The notes beneath the pieces were generated by a model. The model worked only from the letters and a program-made list of their open reading frames with translations, did no database searches and was not told where the DNA came from. Of a stretch of 64,000 nt of DNA, positions 28,489 through 42,122 are shown in pieces. The stretch comes from an uncultured Pseudomonadales bacterium. GTDB taxonomy: Bacteria > Patescibacteriota > Microgenomatia > UBA1400 > PJMF01. Position numbers and translations under genes: made by a program. The stretch is from positions 103,440-167,439 of the forward strand of contig CAYMSV010000001.1 of assembly GCA_964393205.1 (NCBI GenBank). The letters are read 5' to 3'. How positions within the stretch are numbered: the stretch's first letter is position 1; every line of letters begins with the position of its first letter.

Positions 28489-31098
28489 TCAAGCTTTTAC
28501 CAAATCAAGCTTTTTCTTCGTCCAATCTAATTTAATTTTGTCACCAGCCTGAATTTTGTTTTTAATCATTTGGCTAGCTAGCTCATCTAAGATCTCTTTT
28601 TGAATGAGGCGCTTTAGTGGTCTGGCTCCAAAAACGTGATCATAGCCAGTTTCAGCTAAATGTTCGATTAATTGTTCACTAAATTCTAATTTGATTTCTT
28701 GTTCAGCTAGGCGGTTAGCAACTAGATCAAGTTGCAGTTGTACAATCTCTTTAATTTCTTTTTTATCTAGACTTTGGAATATAATAATATCATCTAATCT
28801 ATTCAAAAACTCTGGGCGAAAATGCACCTTTAGCAAACCATCTAAAGCCTTCTTTTGTTCAACTGGATCACTACTGGTTTCGCTAATAATTTGACTACCC
28901 AAATTGGAAGTCATAATGATAATACTGTTTTTAAAATTGACAGTACGACCTTTGCTATCAGTCAAATGACCTTCATCCAAAACCTGTAGAAGAATATTAA
29001 ATACTTCGCTATGAGCTTTTTCAATTTCATCTAGTAAAACTATAGTATAGGGATGGCGACGAATAGCTTCTGTTAATTGACCACCTTCTTCATAGCCAAC
29101 ATAACCTGGTGGCGAGCCGATGAGGCGAGCCACGCTATGTTTTTCCATATATTCACTCATATCGATGCGGGTAATCAGACGCTCATCATTAAAAAGTTGT
29201 TCGGCAAGAGCCTTGGCTAATTCTGTTTTACCCACACCAGTGGGTCCAAGGAACAAGAAGCTACCAATAGGTCTGCCCTCTTCGCTAATGCCAGCACGAT
29301 TACGACGAATAGCGCCAGCCACTGCTTCAATAGCTTGATTTTGCCCAACAACTCTTTGACCAAGTTCTTTCTCCAAATTTATGAGTTTTTCGGTTTCTTC
29401 AGTAAGCATGCGACTAACCGGAATGCCCGTCCATTTAGAAACTATAGTGGCAATATCGCTTTCATCAATTTCTTCTTTGAGCAATCTTTGTGTTGGGTCA
29501 ATATCAGCCATTTTCGCTTGAGCTTCTTTTACTTTTTTCTCCAACTGAGGAATTTCTCCATAATTAATGGCGGCGGCTCGTTCTAGATCATAATTTCGTT
29601 CAGCTTTTTTTGCTTCTTCGCGAAGTTCATCTAATTTTCGACTGTATTTTTTAATTGAATCTAAAATTTCTTTTTCTTTGCGCCAGCGCAGCTCCAAGCT
29701 TTTGTATTCTTCTTTTAGTTCTCCAATTTGTTTTTCAATGTTTTTTAAGCGATCCTCACTTTTTTGACCTCTTTCTTTTTTAAGTGATTCTTTTTCAATT
29801 TCTAATTGGCGAATTTCTCGCTCCAATTGATCAATACTGTTGGGTTTACTATCAATTTCGATGCGTAGTGCTGAGGCAGCTTCATCCATTAAATCGATAG
29901 CTTTATCTGGCAAGAAACGATCACTAATATATCGATGAGAAAGTTTAACTGCAGCAATAATAGCGCCATCTAAAATGCGCACTCCGTGATGTGCTTCATA
30001 TTTACTTTTAATACCTCGTAGAATAGAAATAGCATCATCTACTGAAGGTTCTTCAACCATTACTGGTTGAAAGCGTCTTTCTAGCGCACTGTCTTTTTCA
30101 ACATATTGGCGATACTCTTTTAGAGTGGTTGCACCAATGGTGCGCAAGGTACCACGAGCTAGCGCTGGTTTAAGTAAGTTGCCAGCATCAGTTGATCCTT
30201 CACTGGCTCCGGCGCCAACAATACTGTGTAATTCATCGATAAAGAGTATGATCTGTCCTTCACTCTTTTCAATTTCTTTGATTACGGCTTTTAATCGATC
30301 TTCAAACTCTCCACGATATTTAGCTCCGGCTATCAGAGAACCCATATCTAAAGCTAAGATTCTTTTATTTTTTAGTGCTTCTGGGACATCATCATCAATA
30401 ATTTTTTTGGCCAAACCTTCGACAATGGCAGTTTTACCAGTGCCTGGTTCGCCAACCAAAACCGGATTGTTTTTGGTGCGACGCGACAAAATTTGAGTAA
30501 TACGACGAATTTCTTCATTGCGACCAATGACAGGATCAATTTTTCCTGAACGAGCTAGACTGGTAAAATCTAAGCAATATTTTTCTAGAGCCTGATATTT
30601 GCCCTCGGGTTCTGGATCAGTAACTCGTTGTTGACCACGTACTGTTTTTAAAGTTTGCACGACTTGTTTGGGATCAAGTTCGGTAAGTTGGACAACTTTT
30701 TTTTGGTTTAATAGTGCCAAAAACAAATGCTCAGTACTAATGTATTCGTCTTTAAGTTTTACTGCTTCTGTTTCTGCTTGACTTAAAACCTTACTTAGTT
30801 CTGGGGAAGCGTAAGCTTGAGTGGGCGCATCTGTGCTAGGTAATTGTTTAAGTTCTTTTCTAATTAAAGAAGCAATTGTTTCTGGATTTTTATCTAATTG
30901 TTCAAGCAAATTAGGAATGATGCCTCCTACTTGTTCAACTAGGGCTAATAATAGGTGCCAAATTTCGATTTGACTATGTTTGAGTTTGCCAGCCAGCTGC
31001 ATAGCGTCTTGTACAGCTTCACTGGCTTTGGTGGTATAGCGATCAAAGTTCATAAGTATTCTTTCAAGTTTATTAAAGGCTTTAGTGTTTATAAGCAA
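28489..31098 (-). CDS. clpB: Chaperone ClpB (Hsp104 family disaggregase)
   Basis: Clp N-domain, two AAA+ modules (GEPGTGKTA and GPTGVGKTE Walker A) with long middle coiled-coil; 869 aa. Confidence 0.95.
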
Positions 31099-31884: not shown

Positions 31885-33375
31885 TAGAAAGGAGGTGATC
31901 CATCGGCACCTTCCAGTACCGATACCTTGTTACGACTTAACCCTCATCGCTAATCTCGCCGTAGAAGGGCCGTTCTCTTGCGAGTTACGGTCACCCGCTT
32001 CGGGCGCTACTAACTTTGCTGGTTTGACGGGCAGTGTGTACAAGGAGCGAGAACGTATTCACCGCAACCTGCTGATTTGCGATTACTACCGATTCCGACT
32101 TCATGCTCTCGAATTGCAGAGAACAATCTGAACTGAGGGGCCGTTTAAAGGATTGGCTCCGCCTTGCGGCTTCGCTACCCGTTGTCGGCTCCATTGTAGG
32201 ATGTGTGTTGCCCTGGATGTAAGGGTCATGCTGACTTGACGTCGTCCTCTCCTTCCTCCCTGCAAAAAGCAAGGCAGTCTCCCGTGACACTTGTAACACG
32301 GGATAAGGGTTGCGCTCGTTACCACACTTAAGTGGACGCCTCACGACACGAGCTGACGACAGCCATGCAACACCTGTGTAACACTCTCGAAGAAGATCTA
32401 GTTTCCTAGACCGTGCAGTTACATGTCAAACCCAGGTAAGGTATTTCGCTTTGTATCGAATTAAACCACATGCTCCACCGGTTGTGCGCTCCCCCGTCAA
32501 TTCCTTTGAGTTTTAACCTTGCGGTCGTAATCCCCAGGCGCCTTGCTTAACGCGTTAGCTTACATCACTCAATTCAAAGAATCAAGCAATTAGCAAGGAT
32601 CGTTTACGGTCTGGACTACAGGGGTCTCTAATCCCTTTTGCTACCCAAACTTTCGTCCCTGAGCGTCAGTTGTACTCCAGGAGCTCGCCTTCGCGAATGG
32701 TGTTCCTCTCGATATCTACGGATTTCACCCCTCCACCGAGAATTCCAGCTCCCCCTAGTAAACTCAATTCTATCAGTATTTCAACCTGTATCTGGAGTTG
32801 AGCTCCAGTATTAAAGTCAAAACTTAATAAAACGCCGACGGACGCTTTACGCCCAATAAATCCGGATAATGCTTGCACCCTACGTATTACCGAGGCTTCT
32901 GGCACGTAGTTAGCAGGTGCTTTCTAGCAGGGTACCCTCAAAAATTGTTCCCCTGCCACAGTGGTTTACACTCCGAAGAGCGTCTTCCCACACGCGGTGT
33001 CGCTGCGTCAGGCTTTCGCCCATTGCGCAATATTCCCAGTTGCTGCCACCCGTAGGTGTAGGTTCCGTGTCTCAGTAACCTTGTGGCCGGTCGTGCTCTC
33101 ACACCGGCTACCTGTCATCGGCTTGGTGAGCTATTACCTCACCAACTACCTGATAGGACATAGGCCTCTCCCTAAGCGCCCGAAGGCTTTGATCCGGAGA
33201 TCACATGCGGTATTACCCAATCTTTCGACTGGCTATTCCCCACTTAGGGGTAAGTTCCTATGTTGTACTCACCCGTCTGCTACTTGTGTTAGTCCGAAGA
33301 CTAACTTACCGTTCAACTTGCATGCTTAAAGCACACCGCCAGCATTCATCCTGAGCCAGGATCAAACTCTTAAAA
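31885..33375 (-). rRNA. rrs: 16S ribosomal RNA (complete, about 1.49 kb), not linked to 23S/5S
   Basis: Minus-strand 5' end AGAGTTTGATCCTGGCTCAG (RC at 33351-33370), 3' end AAGTCGTAACAAGGTA...GGATCACCTCCTTTCT (RC at about 31887-31936); the internal 515F site is divergent (see findings). ORFs predicted inside this interval are spurious. Confidence 0.9.
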
Positions 33376-33604
33376 AAGTTTGATTTGCTCTATAAAAAAA
33401 TAAAAGTCAAATTGACGAGATGCAATCTTTAGTTTTAAAAACCAAAGATAAAATCTCTCTTGCACTTTCTATCACTATATTTGCTGTTAAAAAAATAGCT
33501 GTCTTTACTTGTTAAAGATCAAAAAAACTTCTTTTTAAGCAAAAAAAAGAAAGGAGAAAACTTCTAGCTTTCTCTAATCATCTCTCTTTGCCTGAAGTGG
33601 GAGT

Positions 33605-33688: not shown

Positions 33689-34522
33689 GTGCTTTTTACA
33701 AAGCCAACTTTTTCTTTTATACTAGAAGCAATGCCTGCAATCAAACAGGCGATCGTTATGACTTTAACGGTCGTCTTTGCTTACGTATTTTTGCAAACGC
33801 CAGAATTATCGGTTTATTCTTTGCAATTTTTTGCTGTACTTTGTCTCGCCTATTGGTGGCTACAGAAAAAACAAGGAAAACACTTTTTTTATCTCTTCAA
33901 TGAGCAGGGCTCCAGCAACGTCTTAGTTTTAAATTTAGCTTTTTTAATTTTGATTGGCAACACTCAGGGTTTAGCCTCTGCCTTTTTTGCTCTAAGCTTT
34001 ATCCAGCTTTTTTTTGTAACCTTAGCACTTGAAAATCGTTTAGCAATTTTATTGTCTTTAGAATTATTTTTATTTTATTTGGGTTTAGCTTTGAATCGTT
34101 ATGGTTTAATTTTGTCTAACAACATAAGTATGACTGAGTTAAATAATTTAATAGCTATTCCTTTAGTAACTATTTTTTATTTATTCGGCAAAGTTCAATA
34201 CCAACGTTTGCACTATCATTCTTTGTTGCTTGATAGTGAAAAACAGGAAAAGATTCAGGCTCAAGCAGACGATCAAGCTGTATCGATTTTTATTAATAAT
34301 TTACTAGATAAGCGTTTGCCGATGTTGGAATACTTGCTTACCTTTCCCCAAAAAAACATGGTAATGATTCAGGCCGAAATGCAATCTTTAAAAAAAGATT
34401 TAAATAGTTTGATGAAAGAAATTAATCACAAAACTGTTAAAAATGAGTCGGCAATTCAAGAAAAAATATTAATAGAAGAAGAAGCAGAAGTTTTAATCAA
34501 AGCTATTGATGATGAAATTTAG
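33689..34522 (+). CDS. Membrane protein (about 5 TM) with C-terminal cytoplasmic coiled coil; first gene of a secreted-protein operon
   Basis: Hydrophobic helices through about aa 170, then K/E-rich heptad-like segment; overlaps next gene by 17 nt. Confidence 0.45.
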   Translation: MLFTKPTFSFILEAMPAIKQAIVMTLTVVFAYVFLQTPELSVYSLQFFAVLCLAYWWLQKKQGKHFFYLFNEQGSSNVLVLNLAFLILIGNTQGLASAFFALSFIQLFFVTLALENRLAILLSLELFLFYLGLALNRYGLILSNNISMTELNNLIAIPLVTIFYLFGKVQYQRLHYHSLLLDSEKQEKIQAQADDQAVSIFINNLLDKRLPMLEYLLTFPQKNMVMIQAEMQSLKKDLNSLMKEINHKTVKNESAIQEKILIEEEAEVLIKAIDDEI

Positions 34523-35246
34523 CTCAATCTTTTTACTGGTTTTTTTGTTTTCTTTTTTAAAGCCAGCAATGGTTAGGGCTGATAATATGAGTTCAAACTC
34601 TTATTATTTGCAATTTGGCAATTTTAATATGGGGAGTGGCGAGTTTGATACTGGTAGTCAATTTGGTTTGACTTATACCTTGGGCGGCACTGCTATTGGT
34701 CCCTATGGCGAATATGGTACTAGCCAGTATTTTATAGGTAGTGGTTTTCAATATATTTATCAAATTAGGCAATTTAGTTTTAGTTTATCCAAACTCAGCA
34801 TTGATCTTGGTGAGTTAAATCCAGGGTTTTTTGCTAGTGATAGTCATACTGTAACTATTAATACTGGTAGTGCCGGTGGTTATCAGGTTTATGTTTTTGA
34901 AAATCGTCCTCTAACTCATGTCAGTCAGCCAACTGAACAAATTCCCAACACCACATGTAACACTGGTTGTACAAAAAGTTTAGCAGGTATTTGGGACAAC
35001 CCAATTTATGATGGTTTTGGCTACCATGTGACTGGTGACAATACACCGAGTGATTTTATTAATAGTAGTTACTTTCGTCCCTTTGCTGATAATAGTTTAG
35101 GTGAAGACATGGAGCTGATTATGAGTAGTAATAATGTGGCTTTTGATGAAACAGCCACTATGACTTATCAAGCAGCTCCATCAGTAATGCAAGCGGCTGG
35201 TGATTATCAAACTTTTGTGGTTTTTGTAGCAGTACCAGGTTATTAA
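34506..35246 (+). CDS. Secreted protein, small member (246 aa) of a paralogous pair (with 36346..37800)
   Basis: Sec signal peptide (…PAMVRA|DN); G/T/S/Y-rich beta-type composition; C-terminal motif YQAAPSVMQAAGDYQTFVVFVAVPGY shared with the 484-aa protein. Confidence 0.6.
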   Translation: MMMKFSSIFLLVFLFSFLKPAMVRADNMSSNSYYLQFGNFNMGSGEFDTGSQFGLTYTLGGTAIGPYGEYGTSQYFIGSGFQYIYQIRQFSFSLSKLSIDLGELNPGFFASDSHTVTINTGSAGGYQVYVFENRPLTHVSQPTEQIPNTTCNTGCTKSLAGIWDNPIYDGFGYHVTGDNTPSDFINSSYFRPFADNSLGEDMELIMSSNNVAFDETATMTYQAAPSVMQAAGDYQTFVVFVAVPGY

Positions 35247-35247
35247 A

Positions 35248-36291
35248 ATGATTAAAAAAATAATTTTTACTCTTATTTTTTTTGTAAGCTTATTGTCAGG
35301 CAAGCTGTCTGTAGTTAGAGCTCAAGGAATTGATGCTTTATCCGTAAATATTAATCCACCAGTTTCCTATCTTTATATAAAGCCTGGCGCTGGTATTGGG
35401 GCACCAATTAATTTGGAAAATCAGGGCCGTTATACTATTAGAGTAACTCCACAATTAGTTGATTTCCGAACCCATAAACAAACCGGGCAAATTATTTTAG
35501 AACAAACTAGTGAGTTTAAACACTTATCGATTGCAGGCAATCAGGAGCGTTGGGGCGAAGAATTTATCATTAAGCCAGGAGAAAGTTATACTCTACCCCT
35601 GACAATTGCTGTGCCAGCAGATTTTCCTCAAGAGGAATATCATTTATCAGTATTATTTAATGTCGAACAAATGCTTTTTTCTGATTATGAAAAAAGCAGT
35701 AACACTATTTTGTCTGGTATTGTTGCTAGTCATTTAGTAGTGATGGTTAGCTTAGATGAAGCTGATCGTAGTCAAATTGTGATTAAAGATTTTCAATTAC
35801 CTAAGATAGTGGATAGTTTAATGGGAATTAATTTTAAGATTTGGGTAAAAAATATTGGTTTAAATGCCAGTCCAATTCGGGGTAAACTAAGTGTTAGTCA
35901 CTGGCCATCTCCTGAAAAAGAAGTTTATGAATTTTATCCAGATATGGTTTTGGCTGATAGTCAGCGACAAGTACGAGGAATGAGTGAAGGAAATTTGGCT
36001 CGTTTACAAGAGTTGACTGAGCAAGAGGAGATTATATTGGCCAATAATGAAGATTATTTTGAATTACAAAGTTTATTGGTGCAAGAAACTTTAATTAGTG
36101 ATTTTCGCTACGAGAAAGCTTTTTTATTAGGTGCTTATGATTTTCATCTGGAAATTGGAGATGAAGAGCAAACTGAAAGAGTGATAGCTCTACCCTTCTC
36201 AATTCTTATAGCCCTTATTTCATTGCCAATTTTGTCTCGTTTATTAATTATTCTAATAAAGAAACTAGATTTTAAACATAAAAAAAACTGA
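35248..36291 (+). CDS. Cell-surface protein: signal peptide + Ig-like ectodomain + C-terminal TM anchor with basic tail (DUF916/DUF3324-like architecture)
   Basis: Signal VVRA|QG; LSVNINPPVSYLYIKPGAGIGAPINLENQGRYTIRVTPQLVDF resembles the N-terminal pattern of DUF916 proteins; C-terminal LPFSILIALISLPILSRLLIILIKK + KHKKN. Confidence 0.5.
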   Translation: MIKKIIFTLIFFVSLLSGKLSVVRAQGIDALSVNINPPVSYLYIKPGAGIGAPINLENQGRYTIRVTPQLVDFRTHKQTGQIILEQTSEFKHLSIAGNQERWGEEFIIKPGESYTLPLTIAVPADFPQEEYHLSVLFNVEQMLFSDYEKSSNTILSGIVASHLVVMVSLDEADRSQIVIKDFQLPKIVDSLMGINFKIWVKNIGLNASPIRGKLSVSHWPSPEKEVYEFYPDMVLADSQRQVRGMSEGNLARLQELTEQEEIILANNEDYFELQSLLVQETLISDFRYEKAFLLGAYDFHLEIGDEEQTERVIALPFSILIALISLPILSRLLIILIKKLDFKHKKN

Positions 36292-36345
36292 GTTAAACTG
36301 CCCTTGACTCTCTGGCAAAAAAAATTATAAACTAGATTACATACT

Positions 36346-37800
36346 ATGCAAATAAAAAATCGTTTTTTGTTTTTATTGTCCCTTTTTATAATTATAAGCT
36401 CATTTTTTATCGGAATTCGCCCTAATCAGATAAAAGCAGCTAGTTTAAACAATGTTTCAACCCTGTTGAATAATGCGCGTTTCTCTTTTAGGAGTGCTCT
36501 CGAAGGTGCTCAAACTCTTGGTTCTTCTTTAATTACTATTGATGTAACTAACTATCCATCGACTTCGGTTTTGCAACTACAATCTGGTGATGTATTAAGA
36601 ATTGGTGGCGTTAATAATTACAATGTAGCCACTACCATCGATGACGCTACTGATGACAAAGTCAGTTTAACTTCCGGTTTATTAACTGGCGACATAGCAG
36701 ATGAAACCGCCCTAATTTCTACCCAGTCTTCAACTTTGACGGTTAAATTAACAACAGTGAGTGCACTGGAGAATGGAACTATTCGTATTTTGGTTCCGGC
36801 TACAAGTGCTACGGCAACTAATCGAGATGGATTGCCTGATGATGATGGATTTGATTTTGGAGGTAGCGCAAACGCAGCTATTACTTGTCCAGCCACCTAT
36901 CCAGCTGGATTTACAGGATTTACTGGAACGAGTAGTTATGCCAATGGCTCAGTTGAGATAGATGGTATTGATTATCATGTTTTTGACTGTGCTTACACGG
37001 GCACTGGAGCAGTTAGTGCTGCTTTTGATGGGACAACTTATCCAGCTTTTACAATTGCTAATTTAATTAATCCTTCGCCGAGTAGTTCGAGCGTTTTAGG
37101 AGAAGCAGATACTTATACGATCATAATTAGGCATTTGGCGAGTGACGATACCATAATTGATGAAACTTTAGCTAAAGTAGGAGTGATAGATGCAGTTCGT
37201 GTTTCGGCTACTATTCTACCTCAATTAACTTTTACCATTGAGGGCGTAGCATCCGGTCAAAGTAAATGTGGCATCACTACAGATGCTACTACTACACCTT
37301 TGGCCGTTCCTTTTGGAGATATTACCATTGGTACTTTCTCTGATTTGGCTCAGGTTTTAACTGTAACTACTAACGCGGCCAATGGCTATCAAGTAACAGC
37401 GGCAGAAAGTGATCAATTGGGTAAGGATGGACAGGCTTGTGCTGGTGATGGTTCGGCCGATACTGCTTGTATCGTTGATGCTAATGTTACTGGCATGAGC
37501 AATACTGTTTCAGCAGATTGGGCTGTAGTTACTGGAGATCAATATGGTTTTGGTTTCACTATAGGTTCGGCCACTGCTGGAATAACCAGACCTTTTTACT
37601 ACAATGAATCCGGCAGAACTTACAGTGCTCGCCATTTCTCAGATTTAGCTGAATCCACTGATCCTGAAACGATTTTCTCTCGCTCTACAGCAGCTCTGGA
37701 AGACATAGTAGATGTTTGTTATCGACTAACACCCTCTGCACTCAATGTAGCTGGAGACTATGAGAACTACATTGTGTACATAGCAACAGCTACTTTTTAA
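36346..37800 (+). CDS. Secreted protein, large member (484 aa) of the paralogous pair; Thr/Ala/Gly-rich
   Basis: Signal peptide (…QIKA|AS); C-terminal about 200 aa alignable with the 246-aa protein (…NGYQVTAAESD…C…C…GFGFTIG…YRLTPSALNVAGDYENYIVYIATATF). Confidence 0.6.
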   Translation: MQIKNRFLFLLSLFIIISSFFIGIRPNQIKAASLNNVSTLLNNARFSFRSALEGAQTLGSSLITIDVTNYPSTSVLQLQSGDVLRIGGVNNYNVATTIDDATDDKVSLTSGLLTGDIADETALISTQSSTLTVKLTTVSALENGTIRILVPATSATATNRDGLPDDDGFDFGGSANAAITCPATYPAGFTGFTGTSSYANGSVEIDGIDYHVFDCAYTGTGAVSAAFDGTTYPAFTIANLINPSPSSSSVLGEADTYTIIIRHLASDDTIIDETLAKVGVIDAVRVSATILPQLTFTIEGVASGQSKCGITTDATTTPLAVPFGDITIGTFSDLAQVLTVTTNAANGYQVTAAESDQLGKDGQACAGDGSADTACIVDANVTGMSNTVSADWAVVTGDQYGFGFTIGSATAGITRPFYYNESGRTYSARHFSDLAESTDPETIFSRSTAALEDIVDVCYRLTPSALNVAGDYENYIVYIATATF

Positions 37801-37851: not shown

Positions 37852-38847
37852 ATGCAACTAACCTGCCCAAAAAAGAATATTAAGATTCTTATTTTTCTTT
37901 TAAGTTTATTTATATTTACTTTCAGTTTGAAATCGGTGGCTATCGCCCAGGAGGCTTTGTCCTTGACAGTGAAGCCGGTCAGAATTGGAGATGATAATTC
38001 TTTACTTCTAAGTCCTGGTGAAAAAAAACAAATTCAAGTGAAGGTAGAAAACAACTCTCAAATGGACTTACAAATAGAGAGTCAAGTTTTAGATTTTATT
38101 GTGGCTCAAGACGGAACAACCCCGATTCCTGTTACAGAAGAACAAGATAACCGCTGGAGTTTAGCTAGTTGGATGACTCTGGCACCAGCAAGTAATTTTT
38201 TACAAGCTGGTGGGTCAGCAACCGTTAATGTTTTAATTGAAGTGCCCGAGGATGCTCTTCCTGGGGGTCGTTATGCTATGGTGTTACACAGTCCTGATGT
38301 AGGAGGAGTTGAAGACCAAACTGGAGCTGGTATTGCTCAGCGAGCAGGTACTTTGATTTATGTGATAATTGATGGTCCAATTAATGAATTAGCCTATGTT
38401 AACTTTTTTAGAGTGCCTGGATTTTTAGAAAAAGGACCAGTGCCTATGGAAATTAAGATTAGAAACGAATCAGACGTTCACATTACACCAACCCCGCAAA
38501 TTAAAGTTTTTAACATTTTTGGTAAAGAAATAGATAGATTGGTACTAGATCAGAAAAATGTTTTTCCTTTAACCGAGCGAGATTTTAGTGATGTTTGGCA
38601 GAAAAAATGGGGTTTTGGTCCCTACACTCTTAGGTTAGAAGCTGTCTACGGATTTCAAGGACAGGTGGCAAGTGCTGAAGCAGTAATCTGGTTAATACCA
38701 GTAACAATTATTATAATTGTTTTGCTTAGTATTTTACTGATTGTGGCTATAGTTTTGGCAATTAAGAAGAAACAAAGTCAGAAGGCACCATTTAAAGAGA
38801 TGCCAGAAGCTGAAACTCAGCCAATGGATGATCAAGATCAACAATAA
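37852..38847 (+). CDS. Cell-surface protein, paralog of 35248..36291 (signal peptide + Ig-like ectodomain + C-terminal TM anchor, DUF916/DUF3324-like)
   Basis: Signal AIA|QE; LSLTVKPVRIGDDNSLLLSPGEKKQIQVKVENNSQMDLQIESQVLDF parallels the motif in the 347-aa protein; C-terminal VTIIIIVLLSILLIVAIVLAIKKKQSQK. Confidence 0.5.
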   Translation: MQLTCPKKNIKILIFLLSLFIFTFSLKSVAIAQEALSLTVKPVRIGDDNSLLLSPGEKKQIQVKVENNSQMDLQIESQVLDFIVAQDGTTPIPVTEEQDNRWSLASWMTLAPASNFLQAGGSATVNVLIEVPEDALPGGRYAMVLHSPDVGGVEDQTGAGIAQRAGTLIYVIIDGPINELAYVNFFRVPGFLEKGPVPMEIKIRNESDVHITPTPQIKVFNIFGKEIDRLVLDQKNVFPLTERDFSDVWQKKWGFGPYTLRLEAVYGFQGQVASAEAVIWLIPVTIIIIVLLSILLIVAIVLAIKKKQSQKAPFKEMPEAETQPMDDQDQQ

Positions 38848-41035
38848 AAAACGATTATTGAGATTTAAAAAAAATAAAAGCTTTCTTATTACTCATCAAT
38901 TATGTAGAAAGCTTTTATTTTTTCTTTTACTATTCTTTATATTTTCAAAAGCAAGTTTTGCGCAAACTGTAGATCCTGTAACTAGAAATGTAATAGTGTC
39001 AGCTAGTATTCCTGATACGATTCCTCCCTCAACACCAATTTTGATTACTCCAGAAGATGGAGCTAACGTTGATACGGCCCGTCCGGTTTTTCAGTGGTAT
39101 GAGAGTACAGACAATAAGGGCATGTCTCATTACGAATTTCGTCTAGATGGAAGATCTTGGTTTAACAATATTCCCCTATCTAGTTTTGCTAATGAAGATT
39201 ACAGTTTAAACTATGATGCCGGATCGGGAATTTATACTTTTGTAGCTAATCAAGATTTAAGTCATGGTACTCATCGTTGGCAAATTATTGCTTATGATCA
39301 GCTAAACAATAGTGCTGCCTCTACTATTTGGAATTTTAATGTTTTTGTTAATGAACCGCAGTTTACAATTAGGAAAATTGCGGATGTTAATACTAGTATA
39401 AGCTCCACCAATCCCTCAAGTGTTCCTGAGGAACCCATTACTCTTTTTTCAACTGATCCATTTGCTAATGAACCTTGGATTATAGCTCTAGGAGCTCCTA
39501 ATTTAGAGGTAGATTTAACAGTTATCATACCTAACAGTGCTGACCAATCTTTTAGCCAAGAGACCGATAGTAGTGGAAATTGGAGTTTACAGTTAGGTAT
39601 TTTACCTCGAGATGAGATAGTACGATTAGACTTTACTATTACTGACGTAGTTGGACACAAAAGCTATATTCGTGAGCTTTATATTATTATTAATCGGCAT
39701 TATTGGCCCCCCACCGCAATACCAACAGCGACAATTACCGAAACTCCTCCAACAACCGCTCCAACTTCTTTTATCTCTCCCAGTATTACTCCCAGTATCA
39801 CCACTTCTATTACACCAACTCAAGATCCAACTGTTACTCCGTCTATTACTCAAGCGAGCCCAGCGCCCGTAACTCCATTGCCCTCACCAGGTATTAGGGT
39901 GCCAATTATTCCACCAAAGGAAGTAGTTCATGATTTAGTTGAAGACGTTAAAAGAAGTTTGCCTGATCGAATAGCCAACTTAATGACTGATTTTAGTGGA
40001 TCGCCTATATGGAAAGCTGTAAATAATTTTTCAGCCATAGCTTTAGCTTTGCTATTGCCAATTGCCAGTTATTTGTTTGTGTTATTTAAGTTTTATCAAT
40101 CTTTTTCAATAAAAACCTTTCAAGAGGTTCTGATGGCCTTATGGCCTTGGTCTAAAAAAAGAAAAAATTTAGTATTTGAGTATCGCAATAGTCAGGCTGC
40201 TCCTTTGGTGAAAGTGGAACTAATAGACGCTGAAACGAATGAAGTTTTAGATTGGCAAATAACTAACTATTTAGGACGATTTATTAACTTTGATTGGCCG
40301 ACGGGACGTTCTCTCAAATTGAGAGTGAAAGATCATAATTTCTATTTTCCAATAGGTGGTGGTAAGCCACTTTATTTATCTTGGCACAATTTTTATCAGG
40401 GAGAAACTTTTAATTATCAAGAAGCCTCAAAAAATAAAAAAGTTGCTGCAAACATATTTGCTGGTCGACGAGCTCTAGCGATCCCTACGCTTTTGGCTCA
40501 AGGCAAACATAACCTACCCCTAATTGAGCGCCTCAGGGTTGTTTTGGCCTATTTAGTGACCTATCCAAGCTGGTTTTTTCTACTAAGTTTGTTTCCTGTG
40601 TTAATTTTAGTATTGAGGTATCCAAGCTTTTTGAATTATTTAGCACTTGTTTATTATTTTATAGTAGCATTCTTTAAACACGCTAATCGTTTAGGAAAAA
40701 AGACTTGGCAGTTTAGAGTATTAACCAGCAATGGCCACAAAGTTAATCAAAACCTAATACTTATCACTAATGATTTAATAAAAGGATATTCTCAAGCTCA
40801 AATAGTAAATATCAATGAGGCTTTGAGTCCTAAATTAAAATTTGTGAAAAATGAATTTATTTTTAGCTTACAAACAAAGGATTATGCCTTGTGGGATAGT
40901 CAGCGTGCAATTAGTGAAATGGAATATAGTCTTAGAAGAGAATCAATTGGTGAGTTTAAATTACATCTAATTGAAAGTTCTAATCACAGCCTTAGGATTT
41001 TGCAACCCCTTTGTCAATTATTGCACCAGCAATAA
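38828..41035 (+). CDS. Large envelope protein: signal peptide, FN3/Ig-like domain, Pro/Thr/Ser/Ile-rich linker, CarbopepD_reg-like beta-sandwich, C-terminal polytopic membrane domain
   Basis: Signal SFA|QT; PVFQWYESTDNKGMSHYEFRLDG (FN3-like); linker TITETPPTTAPTSFISPSITPSITTSITPTQDPTVTPSITQASPAPVTPLPSPG; LIDAETNEVLDWQITNYLGRFINFDWPTGRSLKLRV; at least 4 TM helices at C-terminus. Confidence 0.5.
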   Translation: MIKINNKKRLLRFKKNKSFLITHQLCRKLLFFLLLFFIFSKASFAQTVDPVTRNVIVSASIPDTIPPSTPILITPEDGANVDTARPVFQWYESTDNKGMSHYEFRLDGRSWFNNIPLSSFANEDYSLNYDAGSGIYTFVANQDLSHGTHRWQIIAYDQLNNSAASTIWNFNVFVNEPQFTIRKIADVNTSISSTNPSSVPEEPITLFSTDPFANEPWIIALGAPNLEVDLTVIIPNSADQSFSQETDSSGNWSLQLGILPRDEIVRLDFTITDVVGHKSYIRELYIIINRHYWPPTAIPTATITETPPTTAPTSFISPSITPSITTSITPTQDPTVTPSITQASPAPVTPLPSPGIRVPIIPPKEVVHDLVEDVKRSLPDRIANLMTDFSGSPIWKAVNNFSAIALALLLPIASYLFVLFKFYQSFSIKTFQEVLMALWPWSKKRKNLVFEYRNSQAAPLVKVELIDAETNEVLDWQITNYLGRFINFDWPTGRSLKLRVKDHNFYFPIGGGKPLYLSWHNFYQGETFNYQEASKNKKVAANIFAGRRALAIPTLLAQGKHNLPLIERLRVVLAYLVTYPSWFFLLSLFPVLILVLRYPSFLNYLALVYYFIVAFFKHANRLGKKTWQFRVLTSNGHKVNQNLILITNDLIKGYSQAQIVNINEALSPKLKFVKNEFIFSLQTKDYALWDSQRAISEMEYSLRRESIGEFKLHLIESSNHSLRILQPLCQLLHQQ

Positions 41036-42122
41036 CTAACAAATTTAACTTATCTTTTTTATAAAAAACTGCGGCTTGACCGCTGGCTGGAGCAAAGATT
41101 TTTTTATCTGTTCTTACAAGGATTTCATTTTTAATTTTTTTTACTTGGCAAGAAATTAATTGACCACTGTTGCGAATTTTAACTAAAGCAGAAAATTTTT
41201 CCTTTTTTTCCCATGATTTTTGATCCTGTTCTTTAATAAAGACCAAGTTTTTAATTGTAAATTCTTTTTTAAAACAAAGGTTTGCTTTTGCTACCACCAA
41301 TTGATTAGTTTTTTTCAGTTTATCTATGACAGCTAAAGCCGGGGGTTTATTTTTGGAAAAGCTAATTGCTTGACTATTTTTTAAGGCTTGATGATCGATA
41401 TTAAAACCTCGACGTTGGCCCAATGTATAAAAAGCTAATCCCTGGTGCTTACCAATGATTAAGCCTTTTTGGTCAATAATATCGCCCGATTTTTTTTGTA
41501 AATTTTCATTCAAAAATTCTTTTAAATTACTGTCTTTTAAAAAACAGATGTCAAAAGATTCTCGGTTCAAACAATCCAAATTATTTTTTTTAGCAATTTT
41601 TTTGACTTCTGATTTTTTTAAATTACCAAGTGGAAACAAAAGTTGGGCTAATTGTTTTTCTTGAAGTTGATACAAGAAGTAGCTTTGATCTTTATCTTGG
41701 TCTTCAGCAGCTGCTAGATAATAAGCATCCAATTTTTTAATAATTTTGGCATAATGACCAGTGGCCAAATGACTAAAGCCTTGTTCTTTAGCCCAATCAA
41801 ACAGGTAGCCAAATTTGAGAAGCTTGTTACAAACAGTGCAAGGATTAGGAGTATGTCCCTTTTGATAATTATTCAGCAAATAATCAACCACACATTTTTT
41901 CTGTTTTTGGGAGTAATCTAGAGTAATAAATGGAATTTTTAAGGATTGAGCAATTTGTTTAGCTATTTTACTTTCCTGAATAATTCGTTTTTTTTGTTCT
42001 TGATTACGAGCATACAGTTTTAAATAAACTGCACTAACATCAAAATTTTCTTTTTTTAATAAATAAGCAACAGTGCTGGAATCAACTCCTCCGGAAAGAG
42101 CAAGTAAAATTTTTTTTGACAT
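40992..42122 (-). CDS. mnmA: tRNA-specific 2-thiouridylase MnmA
   Basis: PP-loop ALSGGVDSS, catalytic Cys region (…NPCTVCNK…), C-terminal beta-barrel; 376 aa. Confidence 0.9.
   Translation of the reverse strand: MSKKILLALSGGVDSSTVAYLLKKENFDVSAVYLKLYARNQEQKKRIIQESKIAKQIAQSLKIPFITLDYSQKQKKCVVDYLLNNYQKGHTPNPCTVCNKLLKFGYLFDWAKEQGFSHLATGHYAKIIKKLDAYYLAAAEDQDKDQSYFLYQLQEKQLAQLLFPLGNLKKSEVKKIAKKNNLDCLNRESFDICFLKDSNLKEFLNENLQKKSGDIIDQKGLIIGKHQGLAFYTLGQRRGFNIDHQALKNSQAISFSKNKPPALAVIDKLKKTNQLVVAKANLCFKKEFTIKNLVFIKEQDQKSWEKKEKFSALVKIRNSGQLISCQVKKIKNEILVRTDKKIFAPASGQAAVFYKKDKLNLLVIAGAIIDKGVAKS

Follow-up and report, generated by a model that had tools for sequence, protein, structure and literature searches.

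The 64-kb window analyzed here (the whole stretch of DNA under study, to which all coordinates refer) carries six genes on one strand, encoding proteins of 277, 246, 347, 484, 331 and 735 residues in that order (Table 1), and this is very probably a Pam pilus locus of the Candidate Phyla Radiation (CPR), from a bacterium of a Microgenomatia/Pacebacteria-like type; within this system, which was described only recently, the locus is divergent and unannotated. Two of the six products are secreted and end in a common domain. The 246-residue protein consists of a signal peptide (approximately residues 1–25), a conserved N-terminal region (26–86) and an acceptor domain (87–246), and the 484-residue protein of an N-terminal β-sandwich (approximately 33–281), a linker (282–293) and an acceptor domain (294–484); in both, the only hydrophobic segment is N-terminal. 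Their open reading frames (ORFs) lie at the coordinates given by a first-pass annotation of this DNA, with the gene for the 347-residue protein between them. The 347- and 331-residue proteins each have a signal peptide and a C-terminal transmembrane (TM) segment, at residues 310–340 with a basic tail and at residues 270–309 with a charged tail, respectively. The 735-residue protein combines a signal/anchor, an N-terminal donor-like strand, one or more Big_13 immunoglobulin (Ig) domains, a Pro/Thr-rich stalk and a CarboxypepD_reg-like domain, with TM segments at approximately 398–424 and 571–603. LPXTG is absent from all six proteins.

Table 1. Features of the six-gene cluster in window positions, with the basis of each assignment
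Feature	Position	Strand	Basis or remark
277-residue polytopic membrane protein, first gene of the cluster	33689..34522	+	overlaps the start of the 246-residue protein's gene; hydrophobic segments
246-residue secreted PamT-like subunit, candidate tip	34506..35246	+	NCBIfam, AlphaFold2, Foldseek
Residues 26–86 of the 246-residue protein, Gly/aromatic/Asn-rich (SxSYxxQFGNFN ... GSGFQYIYQI)	34581..34763	+	17 invariant residues
Cys pair C151/C155 (TTCNTGC) of the 246-residue protein	34956..34970	+	invariant in 34/34 and 81/81 homologs
C-terminal motif of the 246-residue protein, YQAAPSVMQAAGDYQTFVVFVAVPGY	35166..35243	+	end of the penultimate strand, AGDY hairpin, last strand
347-residue membrane-anchored two-domain β protein, chaperone-like, analogous to PamC/PamD	35248..36291	+	hhalign paralogy, WxLIP homology, TM segment
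484-residue secreted major-pilin candidate (PamA-like)	36346..37800	+	AlphaFold2, NCBIfam family matches, Pam architecture
Inter-domain linker of the 484-residue protein, DAVRVSATILPQ (residues 282–293), candidate donor strand	37189..37224	+	coil in the monomer model; conservation
C-terminal motif of the 484-residue protein, YRLTPSALNVAGDYENYIVYIATATF	37720..37797	+	conservation; strand at residues 476–482
331-residue membrane-anchored chaperone-like protein, WxLIP (DUF916/DUF3324) homolog	37852..38847	+	Pfam, hhalign, PDB match
735-residue membrane protein, candidate pilus terminator/anchor analogous to PamR	38828..41035	+	domains, TM segments, gene order
RNVIVSASIPD, residues 53–63 of the 735-residue protein	38984..39016	+	resembles the pilin linker AVRVSATILPQ

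Scanning one genome per species with the alignment of the 246-residue protein's family yielded 80 related loci. The full six-gene order is retained in 60 of these, in CPR metagenome-assembled genomes (MAGs), with the remainder interrupted by contig ends; the gene for the 735-residue protein closes the cluster in at least 60 loci, and that for the 277-residue protein lies immediately 5′ of the gene for the 246-residue protein in 78 of the 80. The lineage names, where given, are Pacebacteria, Woesebacteria, Microgenomatus, Paceibacterota, Parcubacteria and Patescibacteria, in line with a restriction of the cluster to the CPR. We note that many of the other operon-bearing MAG records have generic or evidently wrong titles, often “uncultured Pseudomonadales bacterium” and in single cases “Vitreimonas”, “Limisphaerales”, “Methylococcaceae” or “TM6”; these non-CPR titles look like mislabels, with no sign in this set of an occurrence beyond the CPR.

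The 246- and 484-residue proteins are paralogs through a common C-terminal domain of approximately 150 residues. BLASTP with compositional adjustment aligns residues 97–242 of the former with residues 319–480 of the latter (E = 7e-13, 25% identity over 162 columns), and an hhalign comparison of 34 homologs of the smaller protein with 31 of the larger gives a probability of 99.8% and E = 2.1e-27 over 148 columns, or E = 1.4e-30 over 160 columns with trimmed domains. In addition, phmmer searches of the 80 related loci returned 111 ORFs matched by both queries. Taken together, these statistics indicate that the similarity is not compositional, which answers the objection that the first-pass annotation had itself raised against its claim of paralogy and bears that claim out. 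The NGYQV/GGYQV and GFGFTI/GFGYHV blocks, which it had paired, likewise fall in the same columns of the hhalign alignment. The shared C-terminal region is therefore real, but it extends over approximately 150–160 residues rather than the 200 or so originally proposed, and what is shared is the whole acceptor domain of approximately 150 residues, not a terminal strand only. Within the window, this domain and its terminal motif are carried by these two ORFs alone. Neither protein has a match in Pfam, PDB searches with either single sequence gave chance-level matches only, and a search of the PDB with the A2 profile returned nothing relevant.

The cysteines do not follow this pattern of sharing. 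A conserved Cys pair common to both proteins had been proposed, and we find instead two pairs, located in adjacent loops and in different alignment columns: in the hhalign alignment, C151 and C155 of the 246-residue protein lie opposite a Cys-free stretch of the 484-residue protein, and C365 and C375 of the latter fall within an insertion relative to the former. The 484-residue protein contains six cysteines in total (at positions 181, 215, 308, 365, 375 and 458), and among its 31 homologs the first Cys loop alone is present in 19, the second alone in 5, and both in 5.

At the very end of the two proteins, conservation is family-wide. The family of the 246-residue protein shows no variation at G232 (position −14), Y234, A242, V243, P244 and G245, and at least 90% of its members keep Y246; in that of the 484-residue protein, G470 and Y472 are invariant and Y459, A469, Y478, A480 and F484 are kept in at least 90%. 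Across the 80 loci, Gly at position −14 combined with an aromatic last residue is found in 81 of 81 orthologs of the smaller and 70 of 72 orthologs of the larger protein, and no ORF of the window other than these two is matched by the regular expression G.Y...[IVLAT].[YFW].[AVTI]...[FYW]$. This family-wide pattern supports the suggestion of a shared C-terminal strand, although the description of the two strands as near-identical was wrong, as only 9 of the last 26 residues are identical.

Structure prediction places this strand within the domain. In the AlphaFold2 (AF2) models, the last strand is an integral domain strand in both proteins, at residues 238–244 of the 246-residue protein (predicted local distance difference test, pLDDT, >90) and residues 476–482 of the 484-residue protein (pLDDT 93–96). 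The model of the 246-residue protein has pLDDT >90 for residues 90–246 and <50 for residues 23–86, and that of the 484-residue protein (pLDDT 88) shows strands until residue 281, coil over residues 282–293, and then the C-terminal domain. When the 246-residue model was compared to the PDB using Foldseek, nearly all of the top 50 matches were chaperone-usher pilin domains, plus TasA, with CfaE, the PapGII pilin domain, CsuA/B, CsuE, FimA/F/G/I and SafA matched at probabilities of 0.9–1.0 and TM-scores of up to 0.51. On these models, the shared domain is predicted to adopt an incomplete Ig-like pilin fold.

A system built on such domains has been described in Candidatus Mycosynbacter amalyticus, in which two Pam pilus filaments were solved by electron cryomicroscopy (cryo-EM) (Troman et al., bioRxiv 2026, 10.64898/2026.03.03.709456). 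According to this preprint, the system comprises the pilins PamA, PamB and PamE, the proposed tip PamT, the chaperones PamC and PamD, and the terminator PamR. PamA and PamB are two-domain pilins, each subunit using its linker to complete the C-terminal domain of the adjacent one, and PamT is a single-domain protein; PamC and PamD are PapD/FimC-like chaperones with C-terminal TM helices, in the single membrane, and PamR is an RbmA-like, membrane-anchored terminator with an N-terminal strand. The same text describes paired cysteines, ATP synthase genes as typical neighbors of pamA, and distant Microgenomatia homologs that were reached only by a language-model search.

The NCBIfam models for Pam proteins (NF058579 and NF058581, the latter being CPR_Pam_pilin_C, with a curated cut-off of 55 bits) connect the present locus to this system. 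The 246-residue protein matches CPR_pilus_PamT with E = 2.5e-7 (30 bits, cut-off 240) and CPR_Pam_pilin_C with E = 0.01 (15.9 bits), the latter over model positions 5–148 of 148. Among its 34 homologs, 31 match CPR_Pam_pilin_C and 22 match CPR_pilus_PamT, and CPR_Pam_pilin_C is also matched by 20 of the 31 homologs of the 484-residue protein (best E = 1.5e-10). An exhaustive profile search gave 1,401 clusters (50% identity) at E ≤ 1e-3, and of 149 distant representatives, 108 match CPR_Pam_pilin_C and 102 match CPR_pilus_PamT. The best family E-values are 1.2e-16 for PamT and approximately 1e-10 to 1e-12 for Pam_pilin_C, and even the scores of these best members lie under the curated cut-offs. 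Since all family scores fall below these cut-offs, we assign the families to a separate Pam subfamily, which is probably among the Microgenomatia homologs that were reached by the authors' language-model search only. Overall, we consider it highly probable that the locus encodes a Pam-type pilus, and that the region shared by the two secreted proteins is the acceptor domain of its subunits.

By analogy with PamA and PamB, the 484-residue protein would be the major pilin, with its linker AVRVSATILPQ as the candidate donor strand. In the AF2 monomer, pLDDT drops to approximately 75 over this linker, between two blocks of >90. The linker is conserved, with V284 invariant and A288 kept in at least 90% of the family (consensus VTATIxPQ), and the motif [VIL].[VIL][ST]A.[IVL] is present at the linker position in 69 of 72 orthologs. 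Among the six operon proteins, a donor-like motif occurs in only two, the 484-residue protein (VRVSATI) and the 735-residue protein (VIVSASI). The mature N-terminus of the latter family has the consensus VTAxVPD, with D63 invariant and A59 kept in at least 90%, and its orthologs carry Big_13 in 30 of 30 cases and CarboxypepD_reg in 21 of 30. In a distant operon, a Big_6 protein has the sequence SVTVSATIG at its mature N-terminus.

These data bear directly on the role of the C-terminal strand, for which the first-pass annotation had proposed docking, strand complementation or sorting. That the two secreted proteins are partners of anchored Ig-like proteins is probably right, as is the involvement of β-strand complementation (judging from the Pam cryo-EM structures), but the role that had been given to the C-terminal strand is probably reversed. 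In the AF2 models, the motif most likely corresponds to the final hairpin (AGDY) and last strand of the acceptor domain, bordering its groove. As these models pack the C-terminal strand and leave the linker at residues 282–293 unpaired, and as PamA and PamB donate their linkers, an edge of the receiving groove is a more likely role for the motif than that of a donated strand, and we favor the groove-lining assignment over donation with modest confidence.

Were the C-terminal strand itself donated, either in the style of the type V FimA/Mfa pili of Bacteroidota or by docking into the anchored Ig-like proteins, this would suit its amphipathic character, its position at the end of the protein, and a degree of conservation unmatched by other short elements of the sequence. 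In type V pili, it is the C-terminal strands that are donated. We nonetheless regard this scenario as quite unlikely, since AF2 packs the strand inside the domain with pLDDT >90 in both proteins and leaves the linker unpaired, strand donation in the solved PamA/PamB filaments is by the linker, neither a type V lipobox Cys nor a propeptide is seen in the sequences, and the Pfam FimA-type matches are single ones at E = 0.13–0.17. A sorting or export signal, whether of the sortase/exosortase type or an outer-membrane β-signal with an aromatic end, is far less probable still. The β-signal of outer-membrane proteins does have an aromatic last residue and alternating hydrophobic residues, which the C-terminal motif resembles; however, the motif lies within a folded domain, with no hydrophobic helix or segment, basic tail or LPXTG in or after it, such that the earlier suggestion of a sorting signal finds no support. 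CPR bacteria are regarded as having no outer membrane, and the β-signal interpretation of the aromatic C-terminus was rejected on these cell-envelope grounds.

Returning to a Pam-type pilus with a groove-lining C-terminal strand, we infer the following strand pairings and order of assembly. The membrane-anchored 347- and 331-residue proteins would lend a strand to the open groove of the incomplete Ig-like acceptor domain with which both secreted proteins end, holding newly secreted subunits until exchange. The linker of an incoming 484-residue subunit would then fill the acceptor groove of the previous subunit (donor-strand exchange), and this subunit would be added repeatedly through its linker. 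The 246-residue subunit, which has an acceptor domain and no such linker, would take the distal tip, and the donor mimic of the 735-residue protein (VIVSASI) would close off the final subunit and fasten the fiber to the cell; the repetition of the donor motif at the N-terminus of this protein fits both chain extension and termination. The C-terminal motif would be conserved as one edge of the groove, pairing with whichever strand is donated, and its free aromatic C-terminus may be held by the chaperone as well, as in chaperone-usher pilins. Each anchored-protein gene lies directly 3′ of one subunit gene, which hints at dedicated chaperone–subunit pairs.

Residues 26–86 of the 246-residue protein are the most conserved part of its family, and their consensus is retained in the 149 distant representatives. 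This region may fold only in complex, or may be the binding module of the tip.

The anchored proteins take the analysis beyond the published Pam account, and are the sole part of it to do so. The families of the 347- and 331-residue proteins are paralogous (hhalign probability 99.3%, E = 1e-20), and at the level of sequence profiles both proteins are homologs of WxLIP (DUF916/DUF3324). The 331-residue protein matches Pfam WxLIP_PGBD (DUF916) with E = 3.4e-5 (24.3 bits, cut-off 27.3), 47 of 60 of its orthologs match the same family (best E = 4.4e-7), and the best PDB sequence match of its family profile is EfmWxLIP1 (9i25_C, E = 0.016). For comparison with Firmicutes, seven WxL clusters were taken from plasmids, and alignments of the WxLIP and WxL domains were built. 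Against this WxLIP alignment, hhalign gives a probability of 96.9% and E = 1.7e-10 for the 331-residue family, over 228 columns across both domains, and 96.7% and E = 4.7e-10 for the 347-residue family. Conversely, among the 163 ORFs of the Firmicutes loci, hidden Markov models (HMMs) of the CPR anchored proteins matched only the WxLIP ORFs. The anchored proteins matched no NCBIfam model, and neither WxL nor DUF916 is mentioned in the Pam preprint (10.64898/2026.03.03.709456). The PDB entries 9i25 (chains A and C) and 9i1y contain a “WxL domain surface protein” and “EfmWxLIP1”, with 9i25 apparently being a WxL–WxLIP complex.

The relation to the chaperones of E. coli is much weaker, with an hhalign probability of 37% and E = 3.6e-4 for an anchored family, over the N-domain only. 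A PapD_N match in Pfam is absent in both families, and hhalign comparison of WxLIP with chaperone-usher chaperones gives a probability of 1.4%. In PapD, Arg8 and Lys112 bind the C-terminal carboxylate of the pilin (PMC6838868). The 331-residue family has an invariant R44, which we do not claim to be the equivalent of PapD Arg8, as the hhalign alignment is out of register.

WxLIP homologs could also be taken to indicate a non-filamentous, WxL-type surface complex, in which the secreted proteins share a wall- or partner-binding C-terminal domain and are held one-to-one by WxLIP-like strand insertion, with no polymerization. WxL clusters (Csc) encode a small WxL protein, a large WxL protein and a WxLIP consisting of DUF916, DUF3324 and a TM segment (PMC9772566, PMC10599100), and AlphaFold2 modeling has a WxLIP hairpin completing the β-sandwich of its WxL partner (PMC10599100). 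The grammar of the present cluster is identical to this, and its two subunit genes and two anchored-protein genes form two adjacent pairs; both points speak for such a complex, as does the WxLIP homology itself. Against such a complex, the linker motif recurs at the N-terminus of the 735-residue protein, as would fit chain extension and termination, and the subunit families match models built from pilins that polymerize by cryo-EM. Furthermore, no Pfam WxL match is found at E ≤ 10, hhalign probabilities are at most 5%, CPR bacteria are without a thick sortase-decorated wall, and the cluster encodes no LPXTG protein. We consequently judge a WxL-type complex to be unlikely, and a Pam-type pilus remains our preferred interpretation.

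The possibility that the shared domain is itself a WxL domain homolog was examined separately and is unsupported in each test. Pfam WxL (PF13731) has no match among the 31 and 34 family members at E ≤ 1 or E ≤ 10; hhalign comparison of the WxL domain with the shared domain gives probabilities of 0.8–5% for full and trimmed alignments, and 2.3% (P = 0.02, 50 columns) against an alignment of 204 C-terminal domains; and the A1 and A2 HMMs matched no WxL ORF in the Firmicutes loci. The motif resemblances GW.L with GY.V and AxxYxxxLxWxL with AGxYxxxIxYxA are only a lead.

A number of observations weigh against a Pam-type pilus and temper our confidence in it. The window proteins score far below the NCBIfam cut-offs (30 against 240 bits, and 16 against 55 bits), and the 484-residue protein itself has no NCBIfam match at E ≤ 1. 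The Foldseek E-values are modest (best 2.5e-3), the whole 484-residue model retrieves nothing beyond multi-domain Ig matches of a generic kind at TM-scores under 0.25, and the copies of the PDB that were searched are without the Pam entries (25PZ, 25QA), so that the likeness to PamA and PamB is indirect. The proposed strand pairing rests on analogy, from the conservation of the linker and the solved Pam filaments. The strict donor motif occurs within the first 90 residues of just 22 of 61 members of the 735-residue family, the architecture of which (Big_13/CarboxypepD_reg, multiple TM segments) is unlike that of the RbmA-like PamR. Finally, a motif search found no ATP synthase alpha/beta Walker motif in the window, and a Pam-type explanation leaves the conserved N-terminal region of the 246-residue protein unexplained.

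Much of bacterial diversity belongs to the CPR, whose members live attached to host cells, and Pam pili are the only structurally defined CPR-specific attachment fiber so far. The locus described here is a compact, highly syntenic Microgenomatia version of this system that is missed by current curated models, and it provides two signatures by which such loci can be annotated, V.V[ST]A.[IV] for the donor motif and AG.Y...[IV].[YF].A...[FY] for the C-terminal motif. Enterococci, listeriae and lactobacilli carry virulence-associated WxL clusters, to which the WxLIP link ties the Pam system, and for which it suggests a testable assembly mechanism.

The surroundings of the operon are housekeeping-like in appearance. 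Upstream lies a complete 16S rRNA gene (31888–33377, − strand, 1435 bits), inside which the ORFs at 31991–32344 and 32961–33329 fall and are spurious; no 23S or 5S rRNA gene is present within the 64-kb window. From their sequences, the flanking genes appear to encode an 869-residue ClpB-type AAA+ chaperone (28489–31098, − strand) and a 376-residue MnmA-like tRNA 2-thiouridylase (40992–42122, − strand). A 92-residue ORF antisense to the gene for the 484-residue protein (36618–36896, − strand) is Ala/Val/Ser-rich, as would be expected from the reverse frame of a Thr/Ala-rich gene, and is thus most likely no gene.

Compared to the Pam system as described, the likenesses are a CPR-specific operon of signal-peptide proteins with neither usher nor ATPase, a small subunit consisting of the acceptor domain only, paired cysteines, a pair of chaperone-like paralogs, both with a C-terminal TM helix, and a last protein that is membrane-anchored and has an N-terminal strand. 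The present operon differs in having one large pilin gene where Pam has three, in opening with a conserved 277-residue membrane protein, and in that ATP synthase neighbors are not seen in the window. The 277-residue protein has a charged C-terminal tail and no match in Pfam or NCBIfam, and no such component is listed among the Pam operon parts in the sections of the preprint consulted (10.64898/2026.03.03.709456).

Chaperone-usher pili resemble the system in the fold of the pilin domain (as indicated by Foldseek), in the logic of donor-strand complementation and exchange, and in a conserved C-terminal strand, with Gly approximately 13–14 residues before the end and an aromatic residue in the last or next-to-last position: in 15 E. 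coli chaperone-usher pilins, a near-invariant Gly is found 13 residues from the end, together with a penultimate Tyr. They differ from it in that here there is no usher or outer membrane, the chaperone-like proteins are membrane-anchored, and the putative donor is an inter-domain linker rather than an N-terminal extension. Consistent with this, no usher family was matched by any of the six proteins in Pfam or NCBIfam, and the Fimbrial Pfam family has no match in the subunit families. A sequence relation to the E. coli pilins was considered and dropped, as hhalign aligned the signal peptides only.

The TasA fiber of Bacillus (PDB 8aur) offers a likeness of another kind, as a monoderm, usher-free, strand-complemented fiber that is matched by both of our models in Foldseek. 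The TM-scores are, however, low (0.26–0.35), and there is no Peptidase_M73/TasA family match here. We know of no anchored chaperone paralogs in the TasA operon.

With the WxL clusters, the system shares its grammar: two secreted proteins, one small and one large, have a common domain that is always C-terminal, the small one has approximately 90–110 residues ahead of the first conserved block, and an anchored two-Ig protein accompanies them. Giant, adhesin-like proteins that end in the C-terminal motif also occur in related CPR loci, with sizes of 3641 residues (with DUF2341/Laminin_G_3) and 2559 residues and the ends AAQASGTYDTTLIYINTANY and AAQEAGNYETKVTYILTGIY, which suggests adhesin-sized subunits that plug into the system like the large WxL proteins. 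In contrast to the WxL clusters, there are no Trp-x-Leu motifs here, the corresponding positions being GY.V and Y/F.[AV], and no LPXTG protein, and descriptions of WxL proteins portray them as surface proteins bound to peptidoglycan rather than as fibers. It is conceivable, although we lean toward the contrary, that Pam pili and the Firmicutes WxL clusters both branched from a single ancient monoderm system, with a membrane-anchored two-Ig-domain protein, WxLIP in the one and PamC and PamD in the other, donating a strand to a C-terminal acceptor domain common to the small and the large secreted protein. If so, the WxL domain would be an acceptor domain of the Pam type that has diverged, and donor-strand exchange may serve to assemble, and perhaps even to polymerize, WxL proteins, instead of these just sticking to peptidoglycan.

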